Source of the DNA: a virus | Strand: one strand, 5' to 3' | Length of the DNA stretch: 64,000 bases | IMG/VR virus record: IMGVR_UViG_3300013132_000028 | Location: 1-64,000 of that record | Part shown: piece by piece, positions 14,491 through 29,532 of the stretch | How positions within the stretch are numbered: the first letter of the stretch is position 1 | Layout of the letters: every line of letters starts with the position of its first letter | The notes under the pieces: generated by a model | Database searches by the model: none | What the model was told of the DNA's origin: nothing | Seen by the model: only the letters and a program-made list of their open reading frames with translations | Translations under genes and position numbers: made by a program

Positions 14491-14509
14491 GTGTAGGATA
14501 CACGACGTG
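14491..14509 (+). promoter_or_regulatory. Putative -10 element (TAGGAT) driving a leaderless transcript
   Basis: TAGGAT at 14494-14499, 7 nt before the GTG start at 14507; no SD sequence. Confidence 0.45.
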
Positions 14510-15577: not shown

Positions 15578-16076
15578 CTCTGTTTTTTCTTCTTGTTTTT
15601 GCTCTTTCTGCTTTTTCAAGTCTAGACTGTCTGTCCAAGTGATAGGCTTCTACGGCGTTTGCGCTGGTTCTACTCTTCCAGCTAAAGTTACAAGATTTGC
15701 ATGTTACGATTTTTGCAGTTGTCCATCTTCCACTGCCTGACAGTTGTATTACTCCCGTGAATAAATTTACCGGTCTAGCCGAGCACAGTGGGCAGTTCGG
15801 AAAGCGCCTCCTTCTAGTTTCTTCACCGGTATAGCCCACTGAGAGCGCTCTTCTTATCTCTACTTCGTCTTTTCCTCCCCATACTCCCCATATTTGTTTG
15901 TGTTCCAGCGCCCACTTCAGGCACTGTGCCCGCACTGGGCAGGAAAAGCAGAGGTTTTTTGCCGCGTATTTTTTATTGAATTCTTTAGAAAAGAAGTAGT
16001 CGATCATGTTTTTATTTTCCGGCCTGGCGCAGGCTGCTTGCCTTTGCCACTCTAGTTCGTCGGCTGGTCTGCTCAT
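15537..16076 (-). CDS. whiB: WhiB-family transcription factor with C-terminal Zn-ribbon extension
   Basis: WQxxAAC...AKxxCxxCPVxxxC...GVWGG, then CPLC...CKSC and a basic tail; start probably ATG 16076. Confidence 0.85.
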   Translation of the reverse strand: MSRPADELEWQRQAACARPENKNMIDYFFSKEFNKKYAAKNLCFSCPVRAQCLKWALEHKQIWGVWGGKDEVEIRRALSVGYTGEETRRRRFPNCPLCSARPVNLFTGVIQLSGSGRWTTAKIVTCKSCNFSWKSRTSANAVEAYHLDRQSRLEKAERAKTRRKNRAKRSKPPRKKPGS

Positions 16077-16137
16077 CGTAGGATAATTGAACCACGGAAG
16101 CAAGTCTTCCGGCGTGTCCTAGGGGTGCTAGCTGAAC

Positions 16138-16974: not shown

Positions 16975-17838
16975 CTAGCGTACCATGACTGGAGCACTCC
17001 AGTTATGCGGCAGCCTGTCTAGGGCTTTTGGGTTGGTCTTGTATGTGCGCATTTTTACTTTTTTGGTGTCGCTTTCGGCGTGTTTTATGTATTTATAGTA
17101 CTCGCACAGGCTATGTTCAAGCGCTCTGGCGTCGTATGCGACCGGACCGCCGGCCACTACCGGCCTACTGTCCAGGGGTAGTCCGGCATCCACTGTTTGC
17201 AGCAATGTGTTCCAGTTGCCCTGCCCCGTGGCGGCGCAGTGAGCTATGCCCCGTTCTGCTCCAGGACCGAGCGATGGCATAAACTCACCTTGAAACGGCC
17301 CGCCCTGCCACACCAAGTCCATCATCAGCTGGTCTACTAGAAAGTCACCAAACGAGTATATCTTTCTAAGCAGCTTCCAGGCCTGGGCGGTTGCGCCGGC
17401 TTCTAGCGCCTGCGCCGTTTTTGTGGCAACCTCGCGCAGGTCGGAGAGCACCTCGCACACCTTTTTCAAGTCTGGACAGCGTACGTAGGCCCCCGTGAAG
17501 TTTTTTTCTCTGGCTGACAAAAATACGTATAGTGCTTTTGCGTCTGCCCGTGCCGCGGGCCAGCTACCGAAGTGAGCCAGTATCGCCTCGTGCGTGTCAA
17601 TCCTGTTGAAAGCCCTATAGCAGACGGTGTCTGCAACTAGTTTTGCGCTGTTTTCACTGTGAACTTGTACGTTGTTAAAAAGATAAACAGTGTGTCGGTC
17701 TAGCTCTCGCCAAAGGTTTGTGTAGTGGTACTGCCTAAGTTCTGCCGTATTTTGACTTAAGCGCTCTGCCGGTAGGCTGTACGAGCGCTCTAGCCACAGG
17801 GCGTGCCTAGCCCGGCAAAACTCAAGCAACGTTAGCAT
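16975..17838 (-). CDS. aGPT-Pplase1-like (alpha-glutamyl/putrescinyl thymine pyrophosphorylase clade 1) DNA-modifying transferase
   Basis: YHYTNLWRELDRHT, YRAFN, FTGAY, LGPGAERG and EHSLCEYYKY motifs; start probably ATG 17838 overlapping the whiB stop. Confidence 0.75.
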   Translation of the reverse strand: MLTLLEFCRARHALWLERSYSLPAERLSQNTAELRQYHYTNLWRELDRHTVYLFNNVQVHSENSAKLVADTVCYRAFNRIDTHEAILAHFGSWPAARADAKALYVFLSAREKNFTGAYVRCPDLKKVCEVLSDLREVATKTAQALEAGATAQAWKLLRKIYSFGDFLVDQLMMDLVWQGGPFQGEFMPSLGPGAERGIAHCAATGQGNWNTLLQTVDAGLPLDSRPVVAGGPVAYDARALEHSLCEYYKYIKHAESDTKKVKMRTYKTNPKALDRLPHNWSAPVMVR

Positions 17839-18098
17839 ACTTTTTTCTCTTGTCGTCTTTTGTATATGCGTCGCTCTACTACAGACATTCCTCCCCATAT
17901 ACCGTGAACCTCGTTTGTCGCTATTGCCCAGTCCAGGCACTCTTGTTTATGTTTGCAAGCATTGCACAGCTTTTTTGCCAGTTTCCAATTCTCTGGATGC
18001 ACTATTTCTCTGTCGCTCGTGTCGTCTGAGAGGGGGAAGTACGCCGAAGGGCCTATCTCTGCACAAAGCGGTTGATCGAACGTCCACGGTGATTTCAT
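17832..18098 (-). CDS. whiB: WhiB-family transcription factor
   Basis: LCAE...AKKLCNAC...CLDWA...HGIWGG...ERR. Confidence 0.9.
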   Translation of the reverse strand: MKSPWTFDQPLCAEIGPSAYFPLSDDTSDREIVHPENWKLAKKLCNACKHKQECLDWAIATNEVHGIWGGMSVVERRIYKRRQEKKVC

Positions 18099-18143
18099 TT
18101 GTGTCTACTCCGTTTCTCATGTAGCTATGTAGGTCTAGTTTGA

Positions 18144-18458
18144 TTACTGTTGTTGTTGTTGTTGTTGTTGTTCCCTCTCCATGCTGCCGACTTCGTACCC
18201 GCAGCCGGCGTATCCAGCTATGTCTACCCAAGTGTCTGGCTTGTACGGAATACCAGGACCTACGTCCCTTGACAGTTTAACCAGGATTAGCGCGGTTGCT
18301 ACGTCGCGTCTGCTGAACTTGCGCCCAAACGCCGTACTCCAGAACTCTGCAATGCGTCCAAAGTTTTCATACGGACCGCCGTAGTCCGCGTCTCTGGTCC
18401 CCGAGATTAGGCTAGCGGCTTCCCTGAGAGCCTCTACTCTCAGCGCGTCCTGGCTCAT
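18144..18458 (-). CDS. DUF6378-like protein (putative nucleotide-related) with poly-Gln tail
   Basis: EAxxLIxGxRxxDYGxPxENFxRIAxxWS...DTWVDIAGYA. Confidence 0.7.
   Translation of the reverse strand: MSQDALRVEALREAASLISGTRDADYGGPYENFGRIAEFWSTAFGRKFSRRDVATALILVKLSRDVGPGIPYKPDTWVDIAGYAGCGYEVGSMEREQQQQQQQQ
18147..18170 (-). repeat. (CAA)7CAG microsatellite encoding Q8
   Basis: Seen directly, immediately before the stop codon. Confidence 0.9.
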
Positions 18459-18880
18459 ACTGCTACTCTTTTTTCAAGAACGTGAGGTGAAAAATGCGTG
18501 CCTTCTAGGACCGGCGTCTGTCCATCTACGCTATTTACGATCACGTCGCCGTATCTAATTGCCACGACTCTAGCAACCCTCCCGTTGTGCACTACTCCAG
18601 TGCTGCCCGTGAATGCGTCTAGTTTTATCCGCACTTCGTCTCCTACGCTAATTTGTCCAGGCCCGGTTGCGGCCCAGGTCGTGTCTTGCTCTTTTACTAG
18701 CACATGTCTCTTTGCTAGCTTAGAAAAGTAGCTTAAAGTTTGGTCTGCGACGTCTTCTTTCATTTTTTCAGACGCAACGTCCCACACTTCAAGCAGCTTG
18801 AGTACGGTGTCTCCCACAGCTTTTCGTGCTTTTACACTCTGAAGCTGTTGTAGAACCCAGTCTTTTTCTTGCTGTTTCAC
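18455..18880 (-). CDS. Hypothetical protein with SH3/KOW-like C-terminus
   Basis: ISVGDEVRI...HNGRVARVVAIRYGDVIV; coupled start/stop overlaps. Confidence 0.6.
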   Translation of the reverse strand: MKQQEKDWVLQQLQSVKARKAVGDTVLKLLEVWDVASEKMKEDVADQTLSYFSKLAKRHVLVKEQDTTWAATGPGQISVGDEVRIKLDAFTGSTGVVHNGRVARVVAIRYGDVIVNSVDGQTPVLEGTHFSPHVLEKRVAV

Positions 18881-19353
18881 GTGTCACTCCGTTCTTTTTG
18901 CTTGTTTGGACAGACAGACTCTCTGCACTGTTCTGTGTCAAAGTCGTCTAACGCCCTGCTGCATTGACTGCACTTTACACCTTCAGCTCTTACTTTGTAA
19001 CCGTCTAGCTGACGTTTTTTGTTTTTTTCCATTTTCTGCAGGTAGAGCTTGTTTAGCTCCGCGTCGGTACCGCCGGCAGCCACGATCATATTTGCTATAA
19101 AGTGCAGTACATCTACCGCTTCTTTGAGTATCTCCTCGCGGTCTGCGTACGGCGAGTCGTGCTGCCACGGCTTCCACGATATGGCCTGACGCATTTCAGC
19201 TAGCTCGTCGTCCACTGCGAGCATATTCCAGCGCATGTACTCAACTAAGTTGCGAATTTTGCGTGGGTCATTACCCGACATTTCGTCAAAGTTGATGTAG
19301 TACACTTCCTTCTGTAGTCTTTTTGTCATGTCCAGCCATCTGTTGAACAGCAT
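18877..19353 (-). CDS. All-alpha dimeric dUTPase/dCTPase (MazG-like superfamily)
   Basis: DELAE...WKPW...EAVDVLHF...YLQKMEKNKKRQ; C-terminal Cys cluster; start probably ATG 19353. Confidence 0.8.
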   Translation of the reverse strand: MLFNRWLDMTKRLQKEVYYINFDEMSGNDPRKIRNLVEYMRWNMLAVDDELAEMRQAISWKPWQHDSPYADREEILKEAVDVLHFIANMIVAAGGTDAELNKLYLQKMEKNKKRQLDGYKVRAEGVKCSQCSRALDDFDTEQCRESVCPNKQKERSDT

Positions 19354-19355
19354 TC

Positions 19356-20387
19356 TTACACCACCCCTACTAGTTGATCTTGTAGACAAATTGCCAGGTG
19401 CGACGAGGCAGCCAGCGTGCTGGGCACGGCTTCTGCGTACGTAACTCTCTGTCGAATAGCCATTTCGTACCGCTCTAGCTTATCCATACTTTCCACGGCG
19501 GACGGCAGCGTAACCCAATCAGACCCAAGCCCGGCAGAGTTTCGCCAGTCTGTGAGCACGGGCGTATTTATTGCCAAGCTCTGCGCTAGTTTGTTTGTCC
19601 ACCAGGGAATACCGTTTCTGTATGTGCTAACTAGTAGACCGATTGCTCCGGCAACTACAGCTAAAACTTCTGAGTCGCTGCTTTTTGGATGTTTTTTTAC
19701 TGGCACGATCATGTGGTGCAGCTGCTTGCTTACCTCGTCAATCCAGTCCGTGTTTAGCGTCGTTGCGCACCACCAGCTAGCGCTCGACTTGGCTGTTGCT
19801 GGTTTGACAGTGTCTCGCAGAATAAATGCGTCTAGACAGACCGAAAAAAGATTGCTGCTGCAAAGTGCAGGAATTTGTGATACTAAGTGTTCATCTTCTG
19901 ACCACGGCAGCGCCGCGTACATGGTTTTTGGCCAGGGGTTATTCAATAAATTGAGTACTGTTCTTACTAAACGTTTGTAGTGCGCTGGTTCTGTTGCCTT
20001 TGCATACTCGTATCTATTTTTGTAGAAAGGCTTTACCAGACTTTCCGTAGAACGCTCTACCGTTTTTAGGCTGGTCCAAATCTTGTACGGCTCGGGCGCG
20101 TCGACTAGCAGCGTGAGTCTGGGATCGTTCTGGAGAACATCTAGCGCCCCTAGTGCTCCGTACGCTCTATGGGCAGAAGTACTCGTGAGAGGCGCAATGC
20201 CCACTACTACGCTCTCGTACTTTTCAAAGTCTTTTTCTGTCCACTCTAAAGACGGAGCAAGTTGCTCTACGTTCCAGCCGTGTTCTGTCAGCGCAGTACG
20301 CATTAGACTGCTGAAGCTCTGCGTTCTTTTGTTGAGCCTCTCGGAAGTGTGTTGCGCGGTCATACCGGTTAAAAGTACGTTTTTCAT
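19356..20387 (-). CDS. Putative GT-B DNA glycosyltransferase
   Basis: Two Rossmann-like halves; WWTNKLAQSLAINTPVLTD resembles the GT-B donor-binding motif; located in the nucleotide-modification block. Confidence 0.5.
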   Translation of the reverse strand: MKNVLLTGMTAQHTSERLNKRTQSFSSLMRTALTEHGWNVEQLAPSLEWTEKDFEKYESVVVGIAPLTSTSAHRAYGALGALDVLQNDPRLTLLVDAPEPYKIWTSLKTVERSTESLVKPFYKNRYEYAKATEPAHYKRLVRTVLNLLNNPWPKTMYAALPWSEDEHLVSQIPALCSSNLFSVCLDAFILRDTVKPATAKSSASWWCATTLNTDWIDEVSKQLHHMIVPVKKHPKSSDSEVLAVVAGAIGLLVSTYRNGIPWWTNKLAQSLAINTPVLTDWRNSAGLGSDWVTLPSAVESMDKLERYEMAIRQRVTYAEAVPSTLAASSHLAICLQDQLVGVV

Positions 20388-20599
20388 TTAGCATCACTCT
20401 CTAATTTGTCTATAGCTTCTAAAACTATTTTTGCTTCTGTAAAGCAAATTTCCCACCATTTTTTGTAGGATTCACTGTCCATCGGCTCAATTGACGGCCA
20501 CCAGTACTTCCAGAGGGCGCGAGCAGCCGTGGACAGGCGTACGTCTTTGTTCTCCAATTTAGGTTCTTGCATTGGTGTCTTTCCGTTAAAGTAAAGCAA
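20384..20599 (-). CDS. Hypothetical protein (start may be ATG 20572)
   Basis: Short co-oriented ORF that overlaps the next start. Confidence 0.45.
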   Translation of the reverse strand: MLYFNGKTPMQEPKLENKDVRLSTAARALWKYWWPSIEPMDSESYKKWWEICFTEAKIVLEAIDKLESDAK

Positions 20600-20610
20600 C
20601 GTTAATAAAC

Positions 20611-20653
20611 TAGAGCTCTCGTCGTGAGCATGTGCAGCACGACGAGTTCTCTA
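20611..20653 (-). terminator. Hairpin / probable terminator after the SSB gene
   Basis: CTCGTCGTG/CACGACGAG inverted repeat extended by TAGAG/CTCTA; weak T-rich tail on the minus strand. Confidence 0.55.
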
Positions 20654-20663
20654 TGTGTTCCTT

Positions 20664-21197
20664 TTAGAACGGTGCAGGTGGTGCCTTTACGCTTGCCGGT
20701 GCCGGTGCCGGTGCCGGTGCAGGTGCCGGAGCTGGTGCCGGAGCAGCCGCTGCCGGCGCCATTGCTGCGGCTGGAGAAGCCGCTGCGTTTACCGCAAGAT
20801 TGAAGTAGTTTCTTATCTCGTTCTTTTTCTGGCCTTGCCAGGTTCTGCTCCCAATAGTTCCGCGGAACTTTTTTCCGACCATTGCCGCCTCGATTTGCGC
20901 GTTGGTTGGATTTTGTGCAAAGTAATCTCGGTTTAGGCCTAGGGCATACATCTTGCGAAAGAAAATGCCAAGAGCTGCCTGATTTTCCGGAGAAATTACT
21001 AAGTTGTCCCAGACGAGGCGCTTGTTATGCGCGCCTCCTTGAACTTGTGCCTTGATGGCAAACATGGTTTTACCAGACTGTGAAACTTTTGCAGTGGCTT
21101 CTAACACTACTAAGTCGTAGTCACCGTCTGGAAGTGGATCAAGAGAGCCGGTGTCTCCGGCATCTTTTACTAGGTCTCCCCAGTTAAGCGTGCTCAT
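20664..21197 (-). CDS. Single-stranded DNA-binding protein (DUF669-like)
   Basis: PLPDGDY...SGKTM...VWDNLV...KNEI; adjacent to AAA_24 ATPase; (PA)n tail. Confidence 0.75.
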   Translation of the reverse strand: MSTLNWGDLVKDAGDTGSLDPLPDGDYDLVVLEATAKVSQSGKTMFAIKAQVQGGAHNKRLVWDNLVISPENQAALGIFFRKMYALGLNRDYFAQNPTNAQIEAAMVGKKFRGTIGSRTWQGQKKNEIRNYFNLAVNAAASPAAAMAPAAAAPAPAPAPAPAPAPAPASVKAPPAPF

Positions 21198-21206
21198 ATT
21201 TCTCCT

Positions 21207-21986
21207 TTAAGCGCTTAGCGCGGTTGTGGGTGGTTGTACTACTGCTGGCTGCTTTGGACCGAAAACTATGTCTAGCATGTTTTCAATCCCCAGATTTTCT
21301 TGTTCTACGATTTTGCCAAGGCGTCCTTGAACACGTTCGCCTGCCTCGTATTGATTTGTTCTCTCTATGTACATACGTCGTACTTTCAGAGAACCTACTT
21401 GTGTCGGGTCAGGATTAGGAAACTCCTCGACCGTGATAGCTCCGAGTAGATCGTAAAAGTACGGAGCTTGGATTGCTAGCTGTCCCTGTAGGTAAGGACG
21501 ATACCTTCCGTCCGTAGCGGGTCTGGCCATTGCGGTCAGTACTACAGCTTCCAGTGGTGCGGTTGGGTGCATAGTCAGGTCACGTAGGTCACGCAGTAGA
21601 GCCCCCATGTGACGAAGCAGTTCTCCCCACTGTTGCTGGCTCATTTGCTGTTTGCCAGCAATGTTTTCGAGGCACTTAACCTGCAGCTCGCTCACTGAGT
21701 CAATGATTAGCGATTTGAATTGGTGTCTACCAATTTGAAGCCACTGATAGGCCTTCAACACGGTGTCGTAGTCACGAACTTGTACTACACACGTGTCCCA
21801 GGTGCCGTCTGCTATTGGCGGTTCCTCGCGCAGTGGATCCCAGTATTTAACGACTATAGGTAAAAATCTATGGCCGCCTTCGACGTCTAACATCAGTCTC
21901 GGATATGGAGCTGTTACTGCAAAAGTAGACTTACCAACTTTACTTTCGCCGTACACCATCATCGTTAACGATCTTTGTACCGTCAT
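21207..21986 (-). CDS. AAA_24 / Sak4-like recombination ATPase
   Basis: Walker A YGESKVGKST, LDVEGG, Walker B IIDSVSE. Confidence 0.85.
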   Translation of the reverse strand: MTVQRSLTMMVYGESKVGKSTFAVTAPYPRLMLDVEGGHRFLPIVVKYWDPLREEPPIADGTWDTCVVQVRDYDTVLKAYQWLQIGRHQFKSLIIDSVSELQVKCLENIAGKQQMSQQQWGELLRHMGALLRDLRDLTMHPTAPLEAVVLTAMARPATDGRYRPYLQGQLAIQAPYFYDLLGAITVEEFPNPDPTQVGSLKVRRMYIERTNQYEAGERVQGRLGKIVEQENLGIENMLDIVFGPKQPAVVQPPTTALSA

Positions 21987-21989
21987 ACG

Positions 21990-22922
21990 TCATTCACTTC
22001 CTTTCTTATTGTCACTTTCGTAGTAAGCATACGGGTCGGCGACCTCGTACATTTCACTGATTGCCTGCTCGGCGGCGCTTCCGTCGTCGATCATGTTGCA
22101 TACAGCGAAAAACTGACACTTCCAGTTGCAGTCTCGGCTCGGCCGCGGGTAGGCGACAAAGTTTGGATCAGCACCGTCATCTAGTGATTTTCTAGTCTGC
22201 ATGATGTCAGATATGACACCGTGAAGTCTAGCCCAAAAAGACCTTAAAGTAAACACGTTGTGCCTTACTTCTATTTGCTGGTAGAAGGGTGGCTTAGCCG
22301 TGGCGGCTCTCTTTACTTTCTTCAGCATGGTAAATATGCCTCCGTCGCACCGCTCGTCTTGCTTGTTTTTAGACGACTCTAAAACCATGTAGGTCATGAT
22401 CTGCTCGTTCATGTGCGCCATGCGGGTAAAGTCGGTAAAAGAGCCACCGACGGTCTTAAAGTCACGGAACATACGTGTTCCGTCTGCCTTGCGACGTACT
22501 CTCATGTCTAGCTTTCCTTGCAGCTCTACAGCACCGTTGAACAGCGGCATAGAAATTTTTTCCTCGCTTGACAAAAACTCTAGCTCGGCGTCGACACCCT
22601 CTTCTTCTACCCACTGAAGATAGCCTTCCAGCATTAGCCTGCCTAGCTCTGCTTCCCCGTCTAGGTCGGTAGTGTCGCGCATAGTTTCAATTAACTTTTG
22701 TCGGTCCGTCTCGACCAGCTTGGTATGCGCCTCCAACAGCGGCACACCGTTTGCGTAGTAATTTTCTAGTGCTGAGTGTATACGACTTCCCAGCGCCAGT
22801 GCGCCAGTTATGTCTCTCTGCGCCGGCTGTAGTCTTCTGTAGTACGAAAGCCACCACTTTCTCCGGCAGTCTTTGAACGTTTGTATTTCCGAGTTGGAAA
22901 GTCTGAGCACGTTGTCAGTCAT
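21990..22922 (-). CDS. PD-(D/E)xK (Cas4/RecB-like) exonuclease
   Basis: LSNSE...CRRKW, GSRIH, GKLD...DFKT, CxWxCxFxxxC. Confidence 0.85.
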   Translation of the reverse strand: MTDNVLRLSNSEIQTFKDCRRKWWLSYYRRLQPAQRDITGALALGSRIHSALENYYANGVPLLEAHTKLVETDRQKLIETMRDTTDLDGEAELGRLMLEGYLQWVEEEGVDAELEFLSSEEKISMPLFNGAVELQGKLDMRVRRKADGTRMFRDFKTVGGSFTDFTRMAHMNEQIMTYMVLESSKNKQDERCDGGIFTMLKKVKRAATAKPPFYQQIEVRHNVFTLRSFWARLHGVISDIMQTRKSLDDGADPNFVAYPRPSRDCNWKCQFFAVCNMIDDGSAAEQAISEMYEVADPYAYYESDNKKGSE

Positions 22923-22949
22923 TTTTTCTCCTAGCGTCTCTGCGGTTTT

Positions 22950-24752
22950 TCACAGTCTTCCTGCCTTTTCGTCCTTTAACATTGCAAGCAGCTTGGCTCT
23001 GTCCCGAACTATCTCGTCAAAATTGTCTGCCTTGGTGTCGAGCACCTCTATTACGCGCTCTTCCACGGTGTTTTCAGTTACATAGTCAATTATTGAAATT
23101 GAGTCGTGCACCTCTGAGCCAATACGGTGAACCCTGTCCATAGCTTGTTTGTAGTCAACTAGTGACCACGGCCGCTGCAGCATTACCAGTCTTCGTGCCG
23201 CGCTGAGCGTGATTCCCACGCCGCCAGCCTGTGCGGTAAACAGTAGCCATTTGGTATTGCCAGACTGAAAGTCGTCAATTGACTTTTGACGTTCGTCCTC
23301 GTCCTGGCTGCCTGTGACTAGTCCGTGTTTTATGTCTAGCTTTGTAAGACGTGCGCTAAGCAGTTCTATTAGTTGTCTGGACACGGCGCAGACGGCAACA
23401 GAATCCTCGCCAAAGTCACCGTTCTCTATGTCTTCTATCAACGCGTCGACTTTACACGACGGCTCGACTAAAATTGCCTTTGTTTCTCCGCTTTCTGCGT
23501 CGGTGCTTATCGTGGCGTAGGAACTGGCAAACTGTAACAATCTAGTAGTCTGAGTAAGAGCGCTTGGCGCAGTTAAAGCCTCCCCATTTTCTAGCTCGGC
23601 AATCATCGTGTCACGCATCTGCTCATACGCTTTTTTCTGCTTAGTGGACATTTCAACGTCCCTGCGCTCTTTCATGATTGGCGGCAGCCATTTAAGAACC
23701 TGTTGTTTTAGCATGCGGCGCATACGCGGATTTATGGACTTGTAAAACTCATCTTGCATGTGTGGCTTAACACCAAGTACGGTCATACCACCGAAGGCGT
23801 TGAGCATCGTGTCAACCATTCGGTCTACCCACTTAGTCTTGCTAGGCCACTCTTCTGGCGACAGCCAGTGCAAAATTGCCCACAAGTCTAGTACGTTATT
23901 TGCAATTGGAGTGCCGGTCAGTGCAAATCTAAACTGAGCGTCTCCGGTTGCCGCCCACAACGCTCTGGTTTGCTTACTGCGCGGGTCTTTTGACCTATGA
24001 ATCTCGTCTGCCACAACAGTGTTAAACTCTATGTTGTTCAGCTCTCTAGGCCTAACTTCACAGCGCGCTTCAGTTACTCTTTCGTCATGTCCGCCGTACT
24101 CTGGACTTCTGGCTAGTGCTATTGAGCCGTACGGTGCAAGCCTAGAGTGCGCACGCAGCGCCTCCCAGTTGATAATGTAAACCTGCGTGTCGGGCTCTTC
24201 TAATTGCCTGCGTCTTTGCAGCGCGGAGCCCTTAACTACCTGCGTTACCACGCCAGGCCACCACATTTCAAACTCTCTTGCCCAATTCTTTTTCAGCGTG
24301 TTTGGGCAAACCACTAAAGTTGGAAATACTGACTCACCGCGGTCGTGAAGCAGCTTCATTGCATGTATTGCCTGAGCGGTCTTTCCGAGCCCGGGCTCGT
24401 CGGCTAGTAATGCTTTGCGTGCTGTGGCTAAAAACTGTACGCCGGCACGTTGGTAAGGAAACAGTCTTTCTGCACCCTGGCCGTCTTCCGCCTCGCGGAG
24501 TGCCAGCGAAGGAGTGACTCTGTCTAAAACTTCTGTCGCGGCCCAACCGGCGAGTGCGTCCCCAATAATGAGCTGGTCGCGAAATGTGGACCTCAAAGCA
24601 AGGCAGCTACTCCAACTAAGGGGCACGCGCCAAACCTTGTCCGTGGTCGACCACGTGGCTCCTGGGATGCCTTTACAGAGCTCCTTATAGCGCCATTCCG
24701 CCGTTATTAGAATAGACGCTTTGCTAGGGTCTACGTCTACTGTGACTGACAT
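22950..24752 (-). CDS. SNF2-family helicase
   Basis: ADEPGLGKT, DEIH, LTGTP, GITL, QAMDRVHRIG; GAGGAG RBS. Confidence 0.9.
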   Translation of the reverse strand: MSVTVDVDPSKASILITAEWRYKELCKGIPGATWSTTDKVWRVPLSWSSCLALRSTFRDQLIIGDALAGWAATEVLDRVTPSLALREAEDGQGAERLFPYQRAGVQFLATARKALLADEPGLGKTAQAIHAMKLLHDRGESVFPTLVVCPNTLKKNWAREFEMWWPGVVTQVVKGSALQRRRQLEEPDTQVYIINWEALRAHSRLAPYGSIALARSPEYGGHDERVTEARCEVRPRELNNIEFNTVVADEIHRSKDPRSKQTRALWAATGDAQFRFALTGTPIANNVLDLWAILHWLSPEEWPSKTKWVDRMVDTMLNAFGGMTVLGVKPHMQDEFYKSINPRMRRMLKQQVLKWLPPIMKERRDVEMSTKQKKAYEQMRDTMIAELENGEALTAPSALTQTTRLLQFASSYATISTDAESGETKAILVEPSCKVDALIEDIENGDFGEDSVAVCAVSRQLIELLSARLTKLDIKHGLVTGSQDEDERQKSIDDFQSGNTKWLLFTAQAGGVGITLSAARRLVMLQRPWSLVDYKQAMDRVHRIGSEVHDSISIIDYVTENTVEERVIEVLDTKADNFDEIVRDRAKLLAMLKDEKAGRL

Positions 24753-24785
24753 GCACTGCTCCTCGTCTTTCGTCTCTGTACGTAC

Positions 24786-24796
24786 ATACTACCATG
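24786..24796 (-). promoter_or_regulatory. Putative extended -10 promoter (TGGTAGTAT) upstream of the helicase
   Basis: TGnTAnnnT in the intergenic gap; similar GTAnnnT elements near 16630, 49245 and 53480. Confidence 0.4.
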
Positions 24797-24836
24797 AACC
24801 AACAAAAAAATTTAACTTATTTACGACAGTATCTTT

Positions 24837-25337
24837 CTAGCACTCCAGCAGGGCTTTCGGCACCCAGCCGGCTTTAACCAGTCGTAATAGACCGTGCCTT
24901 ATGGCGTCTAAAGCGTGGCCGTCTCCCCCCACATGCCAGTAGCCAAGCTTCTTTAGCGCTTCGTTCGGGAACATGTTCTTCGCGTCCGACGGCGCTTGCA
25001 TTGCCAGTCCTGGCAGGTAGTGGTCTATTCTGTTGAGATGTTTTTCCATGTCTTTCAGCGCCTGTTTGAGAATGCCTATCTGCTCTAAACTGTAGGGTGC
25101 TTGGCTGTTCTTTACCGTCTGGGCGTTTATGGTAAATCGCTCGCACGCCACCAACAGTCTGTCGGCCTGATTGTACATGCTCACGTAAATCATTCCTCTA
25201 ATGGTGTCTGCGTACTTGTCAAAGTCAGTTTCGTACGAGTGCATAAGCACGGGCACCCCGTCTTTATAGTGGAATAGAGCTATACCGCTCACTTTGCCCG
25301 GGTCTACGGCCAGCACAAACGTGTTTAATTCTGTCAT
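24837..25337 (-). CDS. ruvC: RuvC-like Holliday junction resolvase
   Basis: LAVDPGKVSG, CERF, HALDAIRH. Confidence 0.75.
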   Translation of the reverse strand: MTELNTFVLAVDPGKVSGIALFHYKDGVPVLMHSYETDFDKYADTIRGMIYVSMYNQADRLLVACERFTINAQTVKNSQAPYSLEQIGILKQALKDMEKHLNRIDHYLPGLAMQAPSDAKNMFPNEALKKLGYWHVGGDGHALDAIRHGLLRLVKAGWVPKALLEC

Positions 25338-27157
25338 TTGTATTTATCTCCCCATGTCTCTAGTGGTCCTTCCACGCCTGCAGTTAGTGGAACTTCCCAG
25401 TTGTCTTTGGTAGTCATGCACTCACGAACGGTCTCCATGACGTCCCTGGCGTCCTCCCTGCGGGCCTGCAGCACAATTTCGTCGTGCACTGGCACAATTA
25501 AATTTTCCGTAAGGTCGGCTTGGTCCAACTTTATCAGGTTTTGTTTGAAAACCTCGGCTGCTCCGCCCTGTATCAGGTAGTTTACCAAAGTGTAAACTCT
25601 GTCCTCGTCGCAGGGCAACCTTCGTCCAGTCCACGTATACACGTAGCCCTGGCCCTCGTCTTTTAGTCTGCGCATACCGGCGTCCTCTATTTTTCTCTGA
25701 AACATGGCCATGCCTGGGTAGCGCTGGTCAAACGCGTCTGAGACCGCTCGCATCTGTCCTTCGGGTACTCCCGCTGTTAGTGCCTGTTTTGCGACTCCTG
25801 CGCCGTACAATCTCCCGTACACGGTGCCTTTTATTAAGTTTCTGCGCTTGTCTGTTCTTTGCATGCTCGGGTCGTTGTATATCTCTCTGCCTATTTCTGT
25901 AAACGGGTCCGAGTTAGTGGCGTCTGCACGATTAAACAGTGTTATTAGGTTTGTGTCAGTAGACAGGGAAGCAAACATTCTGAACTCAACCTGGTCTAAG
26001 TCCGAGGTAATAATTACATGGTCTTCGTCTTTTGGAATAAACGCTGTGCGCACTACCTCGTCGCCCTTTGGTAATGTTTGCAGCGCCGGAGCCTGTATTG
26101 ACATTCTTGACGTCCTGGCTCCTAGAGTCTTTACTGACGGGTGCACGAACCCGTTTACGTTGTCGTTTAGAAAGTTTGCAAAGTAAGTATTAGCTAGTTT
26201 GTCTGCTTTGCGTTGCTTTAGTACTAGAGAGGCCAGCTCTTTTACCTCTTCGTTTCCCTCTATCTGTAGTAGCTTCAGCTGGTCCTTGGTGCAGGCCTTC
26301 TGTCCGCTTGGAGTCAGCTCCGTAATTTCTGCGCCTAGAGACTCAAAGAGTCTAGTAAGCTGCGTATTACTAGTTATCGAAACACCGTTGTACTTAGTGT
26401 CTGCCCAGTCTTTTACTTGACCAGAATAGTTTATCAACTCGTCGTACTTTTTGCGTGAGTACTCCAAGTCAACTTTTGCGCCGTTTATTTCCATGCGTGT
26501 GACTATTTTTCTTGCATTCATCTCTAGTTCATAGGGTTTGTTGTATCTCTGCCCCGGTCCGCAGTCTTTGTAAAACTGATGCCAGAGACGCGTAGTCAGC
26601 ACGCAGTCAAGTGCACCGTATGCCCAGTAAGGCTGAAAGCTAGTTGGCACGGTTCCCCAAGTCCAGCCATTCTTGGCCATCTCTATGTCCAGGTTTTCCT
26701 GTAGCGCCACGGCTTTTCCGTCTATGTGCAGCGCGGCAAGACGCTTAAGCGCGCCCGAGCCTAGCGGATCTATGATGTGAGCCATAATCATGGTGTCGTG
26801 CGCTTGGTGCCACGGCAGTTTCCAACGAGACTGTATGTCAAACCAACGTGCTTCAAACGCGACGTTGTGAAAAATTATTGGACCCTCGTAGTTTTCTATA
26901 GCCTGGTAGAAGACACCGCCCCACTCGTTCCACGGTATTGCCCAAGCTTGTTCACTATCCCCTACTTGCACGAGGCGTAGCTGCCCGTGCCAAGGCGAAA
27001 GTGCGTGTGCACGTACACCCCCCGGACGCTCTCCGGTTTCAGTGTCTACAGCAATGGCATCTAGCGGCCTGCGTTGACCAATCCAGTGGATAAACTCGGA
27101 AGCCTTTTCAGCCGTGTCTACCAGGTGTAATTTAACTTCGTTCATAGAAACTGTCAT
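25334..27157 (-). CDS. polA: Family A DNA polymerase with 3'-5' exonuclease
   Basis: Exonuclease motifs DTET, HNxxF, YGALD; motif A DLDQVEFR, motif B KGTVYGRLYG, motif C VHDE; start probably ATG 27157. Confidence 0.95.
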   Translation of the reverse strand: MTVSMNEVKLHLVDTAEKASEFIHWIGQRRPLDAIAVDTETGERPGGVRAHALSPWHGQLRLVQVGDSEQAWAIPWNEWGGVFYQAIENYEGPIIFHNVAFEARWFDIQSRWKLPWHQAHDTMIMAHIIDPLGSGALKRLAALHIDGKAVALQENLDIEMAKNGWTWGTVPTSFQPYWAYGALDCVLTTRLWHQFYKDCGPGQRYNKPYELEMNARKIVTRMEINGAKVDLEYSRKKYDELINYSGQVKDWADTKYNGVSITSNTQLTRLFESLGAEITELTPSGQKACTKDQLKLLQIEGNEEVKELASLVLKQRKADKLANTYFANFLNDNVNGFVHPSVKTLGARTSRMSIQAPALQTLPKGDEVVRTAFIPKDEDHVIITSDLDQVEFRMFASLSTDTNLITLFNRADATNSDPFTEIGREIYNDPSMQRTDKRRNLIKGTVYGRLYGAGVAKQALTAGVPEGQMRAVSDAFDQRYPGMAMFQRKIEDAGMRRLKDEGQGYVYTWTGRRLPCDEDRVYTLVNYLIQGGAAEVFKQNLIKLDQADLTENLIVPVHDEIVLQARREDARDVMETVRECMTTKDNWEVPLTAGVEGPLETWGDKYK

Positions 27158-27621
27158 ACCATTTCCGACACTTCCATGCTGCACTTACGTAAATAAGTAA
27201 CAACACTTTCTGGGTTTCTATGTGCATCATTTTTAGTTTTAAGCAACACTACTCTGTTTAACCCGGAGTTAGATACCGCTTTTGCACAGTTCATGCACAT
27301 GGAGCTGTTTACGTACACGGTTCCGCCTTCTACTCTGGACCGGTCTACATACATTAAGGCGTTCATCTCGGCGTGGATGGCTGGACATTCTTCATAGCTG
27401 TTGTCAAGCGGCGCCTCACCTCTGGCGCGCTTACACCAGTTTATGCAGTCAGAGTCTTCGGGCCAAGTTGCTGCGGGGCCGTTGTATCCAGTAGAGGCAA
27501 TTCGACCGTTTGCTGAAACTATGACTGCGCCAATTTGAGCACGAGAACACCGACTTCTACGCCCGATCGCAATAGCCACCTGCATCCACGTTTCGTCCCA
27601 AGTTGGCCTAGGGGTGTTCAC
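27154..27621 (-). CDS. dCMP deaminase-family protein
   Basis: RSxC, TGYNG, HAExNA, CxxC. Confidence 0.9.
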   Translation of the reverse strand: MNTPRPTWDETWMQVAIAIGRRSRCSRAQIGAVIVSANGRIASTGYNGPAATWPEDSDCINWCKRARGEAPLDNSYEECPAIHAEMNALMYVDRSRVEGGTVYVNSSMCMNCAKAVSNSGLNRVVLLKTKNDAHRNPESVVTYLRKCSMEVSEMV

Positions 27622-27631
27622 CTGTTGCTAC

Positions 27632-28513
27632 CTACTTTGTTTCTGGTTCTATGGCCGCAACTTTTGTGTTTTTTTCTATAGCAGAAATCATTGCGTTTGC
27701 ATACCACTTCTCGTTATCTGCAAGTCTGACCAGCACGCTTGGATTTATGGCTGTTTGCAGACAGAGAAGGGCGGACGACTCGACCTCTCTCCAGTTTCTA
27801 CCCTTGATCGCAGGAATGAGCTCCGGCTGATTTTTCGGCACCTCTAGTTTTTCTGCCTTCTCAAAGTGCTGTTCGTACAAGTGCAGTGACCCCACGTGGT
27901 GTGCGTACAAGCCCGGCTCGATGTCTAGCACTGAAGCAATAGCAAGTTGTACCCTAGTAAACTGAAACCAGTCGTACGCCGCGCCAAGCCAGGCGTCGTT
28001 TGATCGCATGTACACGCTCATGTTTAGCTTGCCGTCTCTAATCCGAAACTGATGTAGCACCGTGCATGGATAGTCCTTTTTTCCTTTTAGCAGGTCTAAA
28101 TTAGGATTCCACAGTGTAACTACAGCCTGCCTGGTGTCTTTGTCGGCAATTAAACGCTCGATTATGTAGTCGTACTGGCCTTTAGTTCTTACGCCGTACG
28201 GACCGTGGAACGTTTGATTTGGCTCCAAAAACTGCGCAAAGTTTGGACTGACTGCTACGGTCAGTGCCGGGTGTGTTACGCCAGCGAGCAGTTGGCACGC
28301 CTCTACCGCACCTATGCCGGGTACTGCACCGCGACCAGTTCCAATTGGAAGCGTGTTTTGTACGTTGTTAATGTAGACCACTGCGTCCTCTAGTTCTACG
28401 GTGTTCATTCCTCTTGGCGACGTCTTTTTTCCATTCTTTAGAACCCACTGAACCATCTCCGTGTAGCCGGCTATCCCGTCTTCTACCTCAATTGCATTTA
28501 TGCGAGAACCCAT
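27632..28513 (-). CDS. Thymidylate-synthase homolog, probably dCMP-specific (hydroxymethylase/hydroxylase type)
   Basis: DYPCT, MRSNDAWLGAAYD (Asp at the base-specificity position), HHVGSLHLY. Confidence 0.8.
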   Translation of the reverse strand: MGSRINAIEVEDGIAGYTEMVQWVLKNGKKTSPRGMNTVELEDAVVYINNVQNTLPIGTGRGAVPGIGAVEACQLLAGVTHPALTVAVSPNFAQFLEPNQTFHGPYGVRTKGQYDYIIERLIADKDTRQAVVTLWNPNLDLLKGKKDYPCTVLHQFRIRDGKLNMSVYMRSNDAWLGAAYDWFQFTRVQLAIASVLDIEPGLYAHHVGSLHLYEQHFEKAEKLEVPKNQPELIPAIKGRNWREVESSALLCLQTAINPSVLVRLADNEKWYANAMISAIEKNTKVAAIEPETK

Positions 28514-29532
28514 GATGTCTCCTTTGCCCAGTTGTCACTTCTGTTTGTTGGTGCTTCTCCGCGCGCCAGTGCAGAAATTGCTGCTCCGTATTCTTGCTGT
28601 TGTCTCGCGTAGAATCTTTTTACGTGTTGTGGGTGTGATGTTACGGCAATAAGTTCTATTCCTGCTTTTTTACATATTGCTTCGGCGTTTCTTCCCAGTG
28701 CTATCGCTGCCGGAGAGCCGAGTTTTACCCACGACAAGTGTAAAATCTCAGGCGAGAGCTCGCTGCCGTTTAGTATTCCAGCGGTAGGCCAAAAGCTGTC
28801 TTCTAAGGCACCTAGTAAAAAGTCGCCACTGTTTCCATCTACAGGTATAAACGGCAACATTGTTGCCTTTCCATACCACCTGTTTTGATTACGTTGATCG
28901 CCAATTAGTAGAGTTTTTGGTTTAGGTGCGCCAATGTAGAACGGCATGTCCGTTAGATGCTGCACAGAGTCCTCTTTTTGAACAGCCATGTCGACAATAA
29001 TGTCGGCAAGCGCGGTTAGTTCGTTCATATTGTTCGGACTCGGTTGTAGCTTCCCCGTAAATACTGCAGACTTGGCCGAAGTTTTTTCGTGCAAGTCGAT
29101 TAGTGCGCTCAACTCATTTGACTTTATGTAGTCATCGCCGCGGCTTTCTAGCCGTTTTGTAACTACGTCCAGCGGCTGGTACAGCCAAAACAATGCAGCG
29201 CCACGGGACATCAGGAACATTTCTGTCCATCTCCATCCCGCCGCGCCTAAAAGACCGTACCCGTCGCTGTCGCTGTCTGGTCGTTTTAGCGGAGCGTACG
29301 TGGCTTCTCCCCAGTGCCAGCGGTCCGCTATTATTAACGAGTCAGGATGCGCGATATTTTCTACAGACAGCACGTAGTCTTTTAGCGCCCACCGTCTGGT
29401 AAGCTCTTCTGGTTTACTTTTGTGAAAGACATGCACTGGATTTCCGGTGTCGAAGCTGCACACAAGTAGTTTTATTTCTTCTACTAGCGTGCTTTTTCCA
29501 GAGGCGTCCGTGCCTTCAATTATGATAAACAA
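28498..29532 (-). CDS. dNMP (thymidylate-like) kinase fused to a uracil-DNA-glycosylase-like domain
   Basis: N-terminal EGTDASGKST and DRWH; C-terminal LLIGDQ...PF...SGDFLLGAL...ALGRNA...HPQ. Confidence 0.7.
   Translation of the reverse strand: MFIIIEGTDASGKSTLVEEIKLLVCSFDTGNPVHVFHKSKPEELTRRWALKDYVLSVENIAHPDSLIIADRWHWGEATYAPLKRPDSDSDGYGLLGAAGWRWTEMFLMSRGAALFWLYQPLDVVTKRLESRGDDYIKSNELSALIDLHEKTSAKSAVFTGKLQPSPNNMNELTALADIIVDMAVQKEDSVQHLTDMPFYIGAPKPKTLLIGDQRNQNRWYGKATMLPFIPVDGNSGDFLLGALEDSFWPTAGILNGSELSPEILHLSWVKLGSPAAIALGRNAEAICKKAGIELIAVTSHPQHVKRFYARQQQEYGAAISALARGEAPTNRSDNWAKETSWVLA

Follow-up and report, generated by a model that had tools for sequence, protein, structure and literature searches.

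The analysis described here suggests that an uncultured actinophage carries glycosylated 5-hydroxymethylcytosine (5hmC) in its DNA and has added to this chemistry a clade-1 aGPT-Pplase (PF18723) predicted to act on a hydroxymethyl-pyrimidine in DNA, a reading to which we give a probability of about one half; all the substrate assignments rest on signature residues and folds. Published accounts of PF18723 enzymes have so far been confined to phages that modify thymine. Pelagiphages are already reported to combine a thymidylate synthase (TS) with aG/PT-PPlase1, some of them also with a glucosyltransferase (PMC9599517, available text), but their TS is Asn-type; the new part is the pairing of PF18723 with a cytosine-type TS.

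The window, that is, the whole analysed stretch of 64,000 nucleotides, comes from a record (IMGVR_UViG_3300013132_000028) of 117,837 bp, estimated to be 88% complete, so that absences in the record are not absolute. The phage has a genome of roughly 120-130 kb, and its hosts are actinobacteria. We read positions 16975-29532 as a module for nucleotide metabolism and DNA hypermodification, composed of two arms and one lineage-specific addition (Table 1). The seven genes that the earlier note had listed as co-oriented with the family A polymerase (PolA) indeed all lie on the minus strand, and HMM searches gave profile matches for the TS, deaminase, MazG-like, DUF6378 and PF18723 genes. The genes separating the two arms (DUF669, an AAA_24 RecA-like protein, a PD-(D/E)XK nuclease, an SNF2 helicase and a RuvC-like protein) are 51-86% identical to their syntenic counterparts in DSL-LC01, and the DUF6378 protein is 54% identical to its own. 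The 141-aa protein has no match in Pfam, PHROGs or NCBIfam (Atlas search <=0.84), and the WhiB-like gene is kept in four close relatives of the window.

Table 1 Features of the module, with the matches or models supporting each assignment
Feature	Position	Strand	Basis
Stand-alone aGPT-Pplase clade 1 / HMUDK_hel protein	16975..17838	-	PF18723 7e-29, profile 4-279 of 281
WhiB-like transcription factor, between DUF6378 and PF18723 genes	17832..18098	-	PF02467 2.5e-15
DUF6378 protein	18144..18458	-	PF19905 4.5e-23
Conserved 141-aa protein, between MazG and DUF6378	18455..18880	-	syntenic DSL-LC01 protein 42% identical
All-alpha NTP pyrophosphatase (dUTPase_2/MazG-like), candidate dCTPase/dUTPase	18877..19389	-	PF08761 2.2e-11
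GT-B fold glycosyltransferase, 343 aa, candidate DNA (5hmC) glycosyltransferase	19356..20387	-	AF2 model + Foldseek
Replication/recombination genes separating the two arms	20664..25337	-	Pfam matches
Family A DNA polymerase (PolA), 3'-5' exonuclease	25334..27184	-	PF00476 1.5e-53, PF01612 3.5e-6
dCMP deaminase	27154..27621	-	PF00383 1.5e-19
Thymidylate synthase homolog, predicted dCMP hydroxymethylase (5hm-dCMP synthase)	27632..28513	-	PF00303 5.1e-24
dNMP kinase (residues 1-190) + UDG-fold domain (190-327), 344 aa	28498..29532	-	profiles + AF2 model

Cytosine-type nucleotide genes and the candidate glycosyltransferase

The TS homolog finds its best PDB sequence match in the CMP hydroxymethylase MilA, and alignment to E. 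coli ThyA bears out the Asp seen in it earlier, at the N177 position (RSNDAWLGAAYD), where the dUMP hydroxymethylases PaMx11 gp51 and SPO1-like gp29 have N177. Its residues D143/C146/D169/D177 are identical to the T4 gp42 signature, and by the rules relating positions 143, 169 and 177 to substrate and product (PMC13326640, available text) it is predicted to be a cytosine-type enzyme, namely a dCMP hydroxymethylase. D177 sets only the cytosine specificity, and the rules linking positions 143 and 169 to the product are correlations drawn in that single paper; the enzyme might then install another C5 group, giving for example 5-methyl-dCMP (XP12-type phages) or 5-hydroxy-dCMP (RB69), in which case the glycosyltransferase would act on this base or on something other than DNA. 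The TS of G005/G006, the closest PF18723-carrying outgroup, which has C143 instead of D143, would fit such a product, but we regard it as highly improbable because the window TS has the hydroxymethylase-type D143 together with D169, and the 5hoC synthases tested in that text all have N169.

The deaminase gene adjoins the TS gene in one operon, with a gap of ~10 nt and in an order kept in DSL-LC01, whose deoxycytidylate deaminase at the same position is 65% identical. The kinase-UDG protein, with 137 relatives confirmed in IMG/VR and the conserved motifs GDxRN and HPQ, matches PHROG_761 (thymidylate kinase, 4.8e-11), and its profile (alignment A4) retrieves YorR (PDB 2axp) at 4.6e-8. When its AF2 model (pLDDT 87.8) was compared by VIA-align, the kinase domain matched YorR 2axp and thymidylate kinases with Z 17.8, and residues 190-327 matched family-4/5 UDGs (1l9g, Z 10.8, rmsd 2.8, 128 aligned; 6ail, Z 10.7; 2d3y, Z 10.5). 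The kinase domain is probably an hm-dCMP kinase. As a separate observation, phages with modified T are described as having a UDG-fold domain and a TS gene to which a dCMP deaminase is tightly coupled (PMC13697223, available text); neither feature is described for T4, and both speak against a T4-style reading.

Beyond the replication genes, the MazG-like protein matches a PHROG dUTPase family (4.3e-22) and, in pairwise BLASTP, T4 gp56 (E 2e-11, 31% identity over 109 aa), which itself matches PF08761. The single-copy GT-B gene encodes a protein with no family match in Pfam, PHROG or NCBIfam. Two DSL-LC01 proteins resemble it at 30% and 25% identity, and one of the two carries a glycosyltransferase annotation. 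The top Foldseek PDB match of the AF2 model of the window protein (pLDDT 80.5, pTM 0.82) is T4 beta-glucosyltransferase (1bgt, E 1.5e-4), the remainder of the list consisting of GT-B enzymes. From this model, the protein is probably a DNA (5hmC) glycosyltransferase, but its target could be other than DNA, the structural match to T4 beta-GT being modest (TM about 0.5).

Compared with the T4 hmC set (gp42 dCMP hydroxymethylase, gp1 dNMP kinase, gp56 dCTPase/dUTPase, cd dCMP deaminase and alpha/beta-glucosyltransferases), the window shares the TS signature, a gp56-like pyrophosphatase, a dCMP deaminase and a GT-B protein best matching beta-GT. The T4-style modified-cytosine logic recognized in the earlier note is thus upheld, the Asp-type TS, kinase, gp56-like dCTPase and GT-B protein all being present. 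The window differs from T4 in having a YorR/TMPK-like kinase fused to a UDG fold, a glycosyltransferase without a PF09198 sequence match, no thymidylate synthase of the phage's own, an actinobacterial host and the extra PF18723 gene.

In the pre-replicative arm of the predicted pathway, the TS homolog, judged from its family membership and active-site signatures, would convert dCMP to 5-hydroxymethyl-dCMP, which the kinase domain of the kinase-UDG protein would phosphorylate and a host NDP kinase would bring to hm-dCTP. The gp56-like pyrophosphatase would clear dCTP and/or dUTP, and the dCMP deaminase would shunt dCMP to dUMP, from which the host would make thymidylate, a role ascribed to the deaminase because neither ThyA nor ThyX is encoded by the phage. 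Following incorporation of hm-dCMP into DNA by PolA, 5hmC would be glycosylated post-replicatively by the GT-B enzyme.

The same genes could be arranged into a route to 5-hydroxymethyluracil (hmU), in which the Asp-type TS would make hm-dCMP, the adjacent deaminase would convert it to hm-dUMP, and the kinase would lead to hm-dUTP for PolA; thymine would thereby be replaced, and the PF18723 and GT proteins would act on 5hmU, the role presumed for them in pelagiphage/PhiJL001-type modules. T-even dCMP deaminases accept hm-dCMP, which, like the adjacency of the two genes, counts for this route. A further point for it is the UDG-fold domain, which fits the T-modified-DNA phages of PMC13697223 (available text). 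We nevertheless consider the route quite unlikely, because it is roundabout when a single-residue change would give a direct dUMP hydroxymethylase and because a gp56-like dCTPase is best understood where dCTP must be kept out; moreover, T4 too has a dCMP deaminase alongside hmC, and the TS-deaminase pair is also conserved in relatives without PF18723.

The PF18723 protein and the missing thymidine-pathway genes

The nearly full-length match to PF18723 (aGPT-Pplase1; current Pfam name HMUDK_hel) confirms the identity proposed earlier. The reading frame is open to 17940 (321 aa), but the true start is likely the ATG at 17838 because the homologs, like the resulting product, are 287 aa long. In a MAFFT alignment at 15-19% identity, E275, H276 and C279 fall in the columns of E243, T244 and C247 of the ADDT PaMx11 gp46, C247 being one of only eight invariant columns (alignment A6), and F200 and Q204 replace the glycine-binding W146 and K150; hhalign of the PF18723 alignment (A5) against the single gp46 sequence gave no match. 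With residue roles as given in the available text of PMC11472151, the protein appears to keep the catalytic Cys and the metal-binding Glu of ADDT, without its glycine-binding residues.

The earlier statement that aGPT-Pplase1 enzymes act on phosphorylated 5-hmU is not supported, since the enzymes shown in the available text of PMC8989533 to act on kinase-made 5-PmdU (M6 gp51, ViI gp247 and PaMx11 gp46) are clade 2 (ADDT, PF18724), whereas the window protein is clade 1. M6 gp55 is placed in clade 1 on the strength of its synteny with the PaMx11 protein gp50, itself tested here; gp55 is listed in that text among the proteins omitted from the reaction sufficient in vitro, and the window protein may therefore have no catalytic role. 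Literature searches found no published activity for any clade-1 protein, and the gene is the last of the operon, preceded by the WhiB gene and separated from the TS gene by 10 kb. These points would suit a plain T4-like glycosyl-hmC phage, its base chemistry unchanged, in which PF18723 is a passenger, namely a non-catalytic DNA-binding accessory, a regulator, an anti-defence factor or a decaying acquisition. This we hold to be unlikely, as the intact gene shows 82-89% conservation in four relatives, where its synteny is unchanged, and the Cys-Glu motif and 61 invariant positions persist within the subfamily down to 42% identity. In the preferred reading, our best guess is that the PF18723 protein would flip out a 5-hydroxymethyl-pyrimidine, here 5hmC, attack C6, and then tailor a fraction of these bases or assist their modification.

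The thymidine pathway of M6, PaMx11, ViI and PhiW-14 comprises a dUMP hydroxymethylase, the P-loop kinase 5-HMUDK, ADDT (aGPT-Pplase2) and tailoring enzymes. Across the whole 117,837-bp record, neither a P-loop 5-hmU DNA kinase (no match to PF18748 at E<=10, to AAA_33 at E<=1 or to PaMx11 gp49) nor ADDT (PF18724) was found; the only PF00303 match is the Asp-type gene, and ThyX, TET/JBP (Tet_JBP) and PLP, radical-SAM and FAD tailoring genes are likewise missing. The absence of an hmU DNA kinase and an Asn-type dUMP hydroxymethylase, noted earlier, therefore extends to the entire 88%-complete record, in which neither such a kinase nor a standard hmU synthase lies elsewhere. With DNA kinase, ADDT and dUMP hydroxymethylase all missing, the PF18723 protein falls outside the canonical pathway. 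The likeness to that pathway consists of the Cys and Glu aligning with the ADDT active site and of PaMx11 gp50, a member of the same PF18723 family located between the 5-HMUDK and TS genes; the window differs by its cytosine-type TS and by lacking 5-HMUDK, ADDT and the tailoring genes.

Distribution and closest relatives

Across 80 IMG/VR loci, the TS gene beside the kinase-UDG gene carries DCDD in 78 of 79 cases, the remaining one being truncated where its contig stops. Of 40 kinase-UDG records, 34 have a GT-B homolog (5/5 among those at least 90% complete). Kinase-UDG, Asp-type TS and GT-B thus form a conserved core in a large group of related freshwater actinophages, whereas PF18723, present in only two of the 40 records, both close relatives of the window, in 0/5 of the complete ones and not found in DSL-LC01, is an addition limited to the window's immediate lineage. 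That the core lacks PF18723 in 38 of 40 related records would again suit a passenger; the tight link of the family to a hydroxymethylase-type TS (18 of the 22 other PF18723-encoding records) argues against one. These 22, the comparison set, are 19 from IMG/VR plus PaMx11, Morrigan and PhiJL001; the four without such a TS are fragments 7-40% complete, and PaMx11 alone has both PF18724 above the cut-off and a PF18748 match, clade-1 genes commonly occurring without kinase and ADDT partners.

With the window excluded, 12 of the 18 TS genes are N177 (uracil) against six, so that the ancestral substrate context of the PF18723 family looks like hmU, not hmC, a majority that also counts for the deamination route. 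Against that route, the subclade of the window goes with D177-type TS only: the window protein groups with its relatives and G005/G006 in a clade of 100/100 support, comprising four rows of D177 type and one fragment of unknown type. Among the three explanations first offered (two modified bases, hmU by deamination of hm-dCMP, and an aGPT enzyme repurposed for modified cytosine), this subclade favours the third, in the form of a clade-1 enzyme in a modified-cytosine setting, and two modified bases would have no visible source of hmU or thymine oxidation.

HTVC023P-type pelagiphages and PhiJL001 pair a TS with aG/PT-PPlase1, to which a 5'-deoxynucleotidase and a glucosyltransferase may be added (PMC9599517, available text). 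As in the window, a clade-1 Pplase occurs near PolA together with a hydroxymethylase-type TS and a glycosyltransferase, kinase and ADDT being absent, but their TS is N177 and directly beside the Pplase1 gene, an HD protein following; the glycosyltransferase of PhiJL001 is a TAGT (PF20691), in contrast to the GT-B protein and the D177 TS 10 kb away in the window. Neferthenavirus Microbacterium phages, on whose DNA chemistry literature searches found nothing published, likewise have a single cluster (for example Morrigan gp44-gp53) with genes for aGPT-Pplase1, an Asp-type TS, a glycosyltransferase, MazG and a protein resembling thymidylate kinase; there, identity of the PF18723 proteins to that of the window is only about 26% and they form a long branch of their own, the glycosyltransferase is a TAGT, and the UDG fusion is absent.

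Genomic setting and the cytosine-type gene set

The seven genes that the earlier note had read as a cytosine-type set joined by a thymine-type aGPT-Pplase1 protein were all recognized again through Pfam, structure matches (PDB and AF2) and BLASTP to T4 gp56, the identity of the DUF6378 gene being upheld by Pfam. They sit within a long minus-strand block (~15.5 to 37.9 kb) of a 117,837-bp linear record (88% complete by CheckV estimate), whose first 64 kb make up the window; family-library scans of this record covered all but about 100 smaller ORFs. For the 141-aa protein of the module, an Atlas search yielded nothing scoring higher than 0.84. The two WhiB-like genes in the window suggest that the host is an actinobacterium. 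Among named phages, the nearest relative is DSL-LC01, an Actinomycetia phage assembled from metagenomes, with 42-86% protein identity and a gene order common with the window from the kinase gene via PolA to DUF6378, and a search of named phages with the region's DNA for near-identity gave no match. The RCC1-repeat protein and the family-2 glycosyltransferase on the opposite strand are probably structural or host-surface genes, and the 2OG-Fe(II) oxygenase in the window is not a TET/JBP enzyme as judged from the Tet_JBP search.

Table. Features of the window, of the remainder of its record (own genome) and of related phages
Feature	Positions	Strand	Evidence or remark
948-aa protein with RCC1-like repeats	11589-14435	+	opposite strand, just upstream of module
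Family-2 glycosyltransferase	14507-15577	+	opposite strand, just upstream of module
WhiB-like transcription factor	15537-16103	-	PF02467 2.6e-17
PF18723 protein (321-aa ORF)	16975-17940	-	101.5 bits vs cut-off 25; profile 4-279 of 281
WhiB-like transcription factor	17832-18098	-	PF02467 2.5e-15; inside modification operon, between DUF6378 and PF18723 genes
dUTPase_2 protein, 170 aa	18877-19389	-	PF08761 2.2e-11
GT-B-like protein, 343 aa	19356-20387	-	AF2 model pLDDT 80.5
PolA	25334-27184	-	clear Pfam match
dCMP deaminase	27154-27621	-	clear Pfam match
TS homolog	27632-28513	-	PF00303, 85.3 bits vs cut-off 24.3
Kinase-UDG protein, 344 aa	28498-29532	-	sequence searches give a weak P-loop kinase signal
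2OG-Fe(II) oxygenase	30771-31385	-	PF13640 1.2e-18; same minus-strand block
Neighbour of 2OG oxygenase	31334-31972	-	matches PHROG labelled 'ferrochelatase'
Class II (B12-type) ribonucleotide reductase	own genome 103945-105981	+	
Nucleotide-sugar epimerase/reductase	own genome 109365-112422 (L015 6365-9422)	+	PF01370 1.2e-39
Serine recombinase/invertase-like gene	own genome 114038-114715	+	PHROG integrase 2.8e-41
DSL-LC01 glycosyltransferase, UDP-galactopyranose mutase and GT-B paralog in a row	L003 21924-25069		beside gp56-like gene
PhiJL001 gp22 TET-associated glycosyltransferase and gp23 Nmad5 protein	L008 8364-9798		PF20691 2.7e-53 (gp22); PF18757 (gp23)
GT-B homologs with in-frame stop	records G038, G040, G042, G048, G050, G052, G053, G054 (L099, L101, L105, L113, L119, L123, L125, L127)		

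The TS homolog, the only one in the record, has the CMP hydroxymethylase MilA as its best solved relative by sequence. In the alignment (E. coli ThyA numbering), the catalytic C146 corresponds to C150 and the position of ThyA N177 to D181 (in GAAYD), which aligns with D179 of T4 gp42 and the Asp of MilA, and positions 143 and 169 are occupied by D147 (KDYPC) and D173 (RSND). The resulting D143/C146/D169/D177 (DCDD) set is identical in T4 gp42 and common also to DSL-LC01 and Gordonia phage Forza; the dUMP hydroxymethylases PaMx11 gp51 and SPO1-like gp29 have N177. According to PMC13326640, N at position 177 goes with dUMP and D with dCMP, a hydrophobic residue at position 143 with methyl and an acidic one with hydroxymethyl products, and position 169 is normally D, being N in 5-hydroxy-dCMP (5hoC) synthases. 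The window enzyme, with this signature, is thus predicted to be a dCMP hydroxymethylase producing 5hm-dCMP from dCMP and methylene-THF. The 170-aa protein appears to be of the T4 gp56 dCTPase/dUTPase type by family membership and similarity (BLASTP E 2e-11; gp56 itself matches PF08761/dUTPase_2), with a putative dCTP/dUTP preference.

For the kinase-UDG protein (24 homologs aligned; AF2 model pLDDT 87.8), the structure search matched residues 1-193 to YorR and thymidylate kinases (Z 17.8) and residues 190-327 to family-4/5 UDGs (1l9g, Z 10.8; 6ail, Z 10.7; 2d3y, Z 10.5; rmsd 2.7-3.0 over 125-128 aligned residues), so that the latter segment is modeled with a UDG alpha/beta fold. This fold surfaced only in the structure search: the protein gave no Pfam UDG match, the profile of its homologs (A4) retrieved kinases only from the PDB sequences, and Foldseek with the entire model returned kinases only among the matches listed. 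Catalysis in family-4/5 UDGs depends on the motifs GE(A/G)PG (GEAPG) and HPS. Since the invariant motifs found at the corresponding places of the UDG-like domain in the 24-homolog alignment are GDxRN and HPQ, catalysis by this domain is uncertain.

The 343-aa protein gave no family match in Pfam (E<=0.01), PHROGs or NCBIfam and just 10 homologs in a word-indexed search. With its model, Foldseek returned 12 PDB matches at E<=0.001, T4 beta-glucosyltransferase being the first (E 1.5e-4, TM ~0.5) and all those listed being GT-B enzymes, which indicates a predicted two-Rossmann-domain GT-B fold; PDB sequence searches were uninformative for this protein and for the PF18723 protein. It falls outside PF09198, in which T4 beta-glucosyltransferase scores 325 bits, and a function in 5hmC-DNA glycosylation is putative. 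The nucleotide-sugar epimerase/reductase of the record (PHROG 'nucleotide-sugar epimerase' 2e-64; best NCBIfam rows GDP-fucose synthase and GalE, far under cut-off), flanked by 310-aa and 377-aa ORFs both without a family match, could be the source of the donor sugar for the GT-B enzyme. In place of the PF18723 gene, DSL-LC01 carries a second glycosyltransferase and a UDP-galactopyranose mutase, in a row of sugar genes that suggests galactofuranosylated DNA; the authors describing this phage, in the one paper on a named member of the group, took its sugar genes, including the mutase, for auxiliary genes of cell-wall metabolism (PMC10611076).

Conservation of the core in related actinophages

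A search with the kinase-UDG protein yielded 326 matches; confirmation in IMG/VR gave 137 relatives, and 80 of them were retained. The TS gene lies beside the kinase-UDG gene at 79 of these 80 loci and encodes the full DCDD set in 78 of the 79, the remaining one being cut by the contig end. The GT-B and PF18723 proteins were then searched for in half of these records, namely the 39 whose contigs reach 30 kb or more and, as a control, one shorter close relative. A GT-B homolog was found in 34 of the 40, including all five records at least 90% complete. A PF18723 protein was found in two, which are relatives of the window virus at 82-89%, and in none of the five complete records. The wide occurrence of the core and the presence of PF18723 in 2/40 point to kinase-UDG, Asp-type TS, deaminase and GT-B as the ancestral module, to which the PF18723 gene is a recent addition in the window's lineage. 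Glycosylated 5hmC would then be made by this actinophage group in the manner of T4, a modification not described in the group before. If so, a large and abundant group of freshwater actinobacterial phages carries glycosylated 5hmC through kinase-UDG, Asp-type TS and GT-B, with a bearing on the sequencing, cutting and cloning of these genomes and on the host defences evaded.

The GT-B gene is single-copy in the window's own genome, and many of the 40 records have one or two further copies that are more divergent. The reading frame of the best GT-B homolog contains one in-frame stop in eight related records (three with TAA, five with TGA), which may reflect broken genes, mis-joined frames or recoding.

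The PF18723 protein and its clade-1 relatives

The clades of aGPT-Pplase were reportedly defined by Iyer et al. in 2013. The window protein belongs to PF18723 (clade 1), as does PaMx11 gp50, and some Microbacterium phage records annotate such proteins as 'aGPT-Pplase1 domain-containing protein'. Its homologs being 287 aa long, translation probably begins at the ATG at 17838, and no kinase is fused to the domain, as 34 residues at most, and probably none, lie upstream. In SP10, gp186 is a kinase fused to a Pplase domain (PMC5889632), presumably the source of the Pfam name HMUDK_hel.

In the reconstituted thymidine pathways, a P-loop kinase forms 5-PmdU and a clade-2 enzyme (ADDT, PF18724) swaps the phosphate for an amino acid or amine (PMC8989533), a chemistry since extended to diamines (PMC13458397). 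The M6 enzymes gp54 and gp51 were enough in vitro with gp55 omitted (PMC8989533), and from its synteny with PaMx11 gp50, which was tested here, we infer that gp55 is a clade-1 protein. No paper assigning an activity to a clade-1 aGPT-Pplase was found in the literature searched. The earlier note had seen no 5-hmU DNA kinase, and the searches of the whole 117.8-kb record (88% complete) agree, with no match to PF18748, to AAA_33 (the family best matched by PaMx11 gp49) or to gp49 itself, at a sensitivity limited by PF18748 scoring the real kinase gp49 at just 17 bits. The same record gave no match to the PF18724 profile or to the ADDT PaMx11 gp46, and as a 5hmU source neither an N177-type TS nor Tet_JBP; a search for ThyX gave no match either.

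The window protein has no match to the PF18724 profile at E<=10, only PhiJL001 gp19 touches this profile, weakly (E 0.037), and hhalign of the profile A5 against the single ADDT sequence gp46 gave no alignment. In the MAFFT alignment A6 of gp46 with seven clade-1 proteins (15-19% identity), only eight columns are invariant, among them C247 of gp46, whose EVETILC pairs with ALEHSLC in the window protein. E275 and H276 of the latter fall in the columns of the metal ligands E243 and T244, and the donor-pocket residues W146 and K150 are not kept, the window protein having F200 and Q204. The roles in gp46, as given in PMC11472151, are clamping of the flipped base for C247, metal ligation for E243/T244 and glycine binding for W146/K150; the conserved Cys was found catalytic by mutagenesis in M6 gp51 and ViI gp247 (PMC8989533) and in 15599 Pplase2 (PMC13458397). 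The subfamily of the window protein, whose members diverge down to 42% identity, keeps C279, E280, H276 and E275 without exception. It is possible that the PF18723 protein makes no catalytic contribution; the conserved Cys, Glu and His suggest a working enzyme, which may employ the same C6-attack chemistry as ADDT with a different co-substrate.

To place this protein among its relatives, we surveyed 19 IMG/VR records containing a PF18723 relative together with the cultured phages PaMx11, Microbacterium phage Morrigan and PhiJL001. An ADDT above cut-off with a kinase match occurs in PaMx11 only, of the 22 records, and in none of the five with a completeness of 90% or more. All three phages and 15 of the 19 IMG/VR records encode a TS homolog; the other four IMG/VR records are fragments (7-40% complete). 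The TS homolog is of the N177 type in 12 records (PaMx11, PhiJL001 and ten of marine type) and of the D177 type in six (G001, G002, G005, G006, G010 and Morrigan), seven with the window; position 143 is C, not D, in G005 and G006, and G010 encodes a canonical ThyA as well. At the ten marine N-type loci the PF18723 gene is directly upstream of the TS gene, followed by an HD-domain gene in seven. The partnership of TS with aG/PT-PPlase1, sometimes with a 5'-deoxynucleotidase and a glucosyltransferase, has been reported for HTVC023P-type pelagiphages (PMC9599517). Together with the adjacency surveyed here, this makes the association of stand-alone clade-1 genes with hydroxymethylase-type TS a known pattern, from which the window differs in that its TS is D177 and 10 kb away from the PF18723 gene, whereas the module of the pelagiphage/PhiJL001 type is defined by an adjoining N177-type TS and a following HD 5'-deoxynucleotidase. 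PhiJL001 and Morrigan carry the TET-associated glycosyltransferase PF20691, and in PhiJL001 the gp22 and gp23 genes separate the PF18723 gene from that of the N177-type TS. The searchable literature makes no mention of clade 1 being paired with a cytosine-type TS, although Asp-type cases may already be visible in the pelagiphage Pplase1/TS trees (PMC9599517, Figs S4/S5) or the M6/PaMx11 synteny figure (PMC8989533, Fig S15).

In the tree, built from 20 rows of clade 1 and a single one of ADDT (near-duplicate rows L010, L011 and L026 left out), the window protein, its relatives and G005/G006 form a clade with 100/100 support, comprising four rows of D type and a fragment of unknown type, which is sister to PaMx11 gp50 plus PhiJL001 gp19 (88/85); the Morrigan protein is on a separate long branch. 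At least three changes are needed to place the D label on this tree, and the cytosine-type association therefore arose more than once or is labile.

Predicted roles on hydroxymethylated DNA

The 'hybrid pathway' of the earlier note is partly supported, as a T4-style cytosine set accompanied by an aGPT-Pplase1, and the apparent paradox that it raised shrinks once clade 1 is set apart from clade 2. What is new here is the predicted cytosine-type context for the PF18723 family, on a conserved, so far undescribed module predicted to make glycosyl-hmC. The most economical model is glycosylated 5hmC plus an added, lineage-specific clade-1 enzyme, which would act on a hydroxymethyl-pyrimidine present in the glycosyl-5hmC DNA. 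As the main rival, the adjacent deaminase may turn hm-dCMP into hm-dUMP, so that the DNA-level enzymes meet 5hmU; such a route would be in keeping with the UDG-fold domain of the kinase-UDG protein and with the bias towards uracil in the PF18723 family, although parsimony, the presence of a gp56-like dCTPase and the restriction of the window's PF18723 subclade to the D type all speak against it.

Returning to the clade-1 enzyme acting in a glycosyl-5hmC background, we speculate, with a probability of only about 15%, that it is an active cytosine-directed DNA transferase, whose Cys would attack C6 of 5hmC for placing a new substituent on the 5-methylene. The attack on 5hmC may be direct, His276 then acting as the acid that assists departure of the hydroxyl, or the base may first be activated, for example by phosphorylation with kinase-UDG serving as a base-flipping DNA kinase. 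For the kinase domain paired with that of PF18723, a complex prediction gave a score of 0.00 (no answer), which is evidence in neither direction. With such a transferase, cytosine would for the first time be a target of aGPT-Pplase-type hypermodification and clade 1 would gain its first assigned activity; an enzyme modifying 5hmC would offer a new base chemistry and a possible 5hmC-labelling tool. Clade-1 proteins are tied to hydroxymethylase-type TS genes of both uracil and cytosine types, not to a DNA kinase and transferase, so that a kinase-free test on 5hmC- or 5hmU-DNA becomes possible.

G006 is a virus of 150 kb, and its PF18723 protein shares 47% identity with that of the window (L017 8806-10903, L038). 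The PF18723 gene follows a 2OG-FeII_Oxy_5 oxygenase gene there at a distance of 11 nt. A link of 2OG oxygenases to PF18723 was rejected, as this oxygenase is not detectably similar to the 2OG-Fe(II) oxygenase of the window. The TS homolog of G006 scores ~190 bits and combines C143 with D177, and its module may lead to a different cytosine product.
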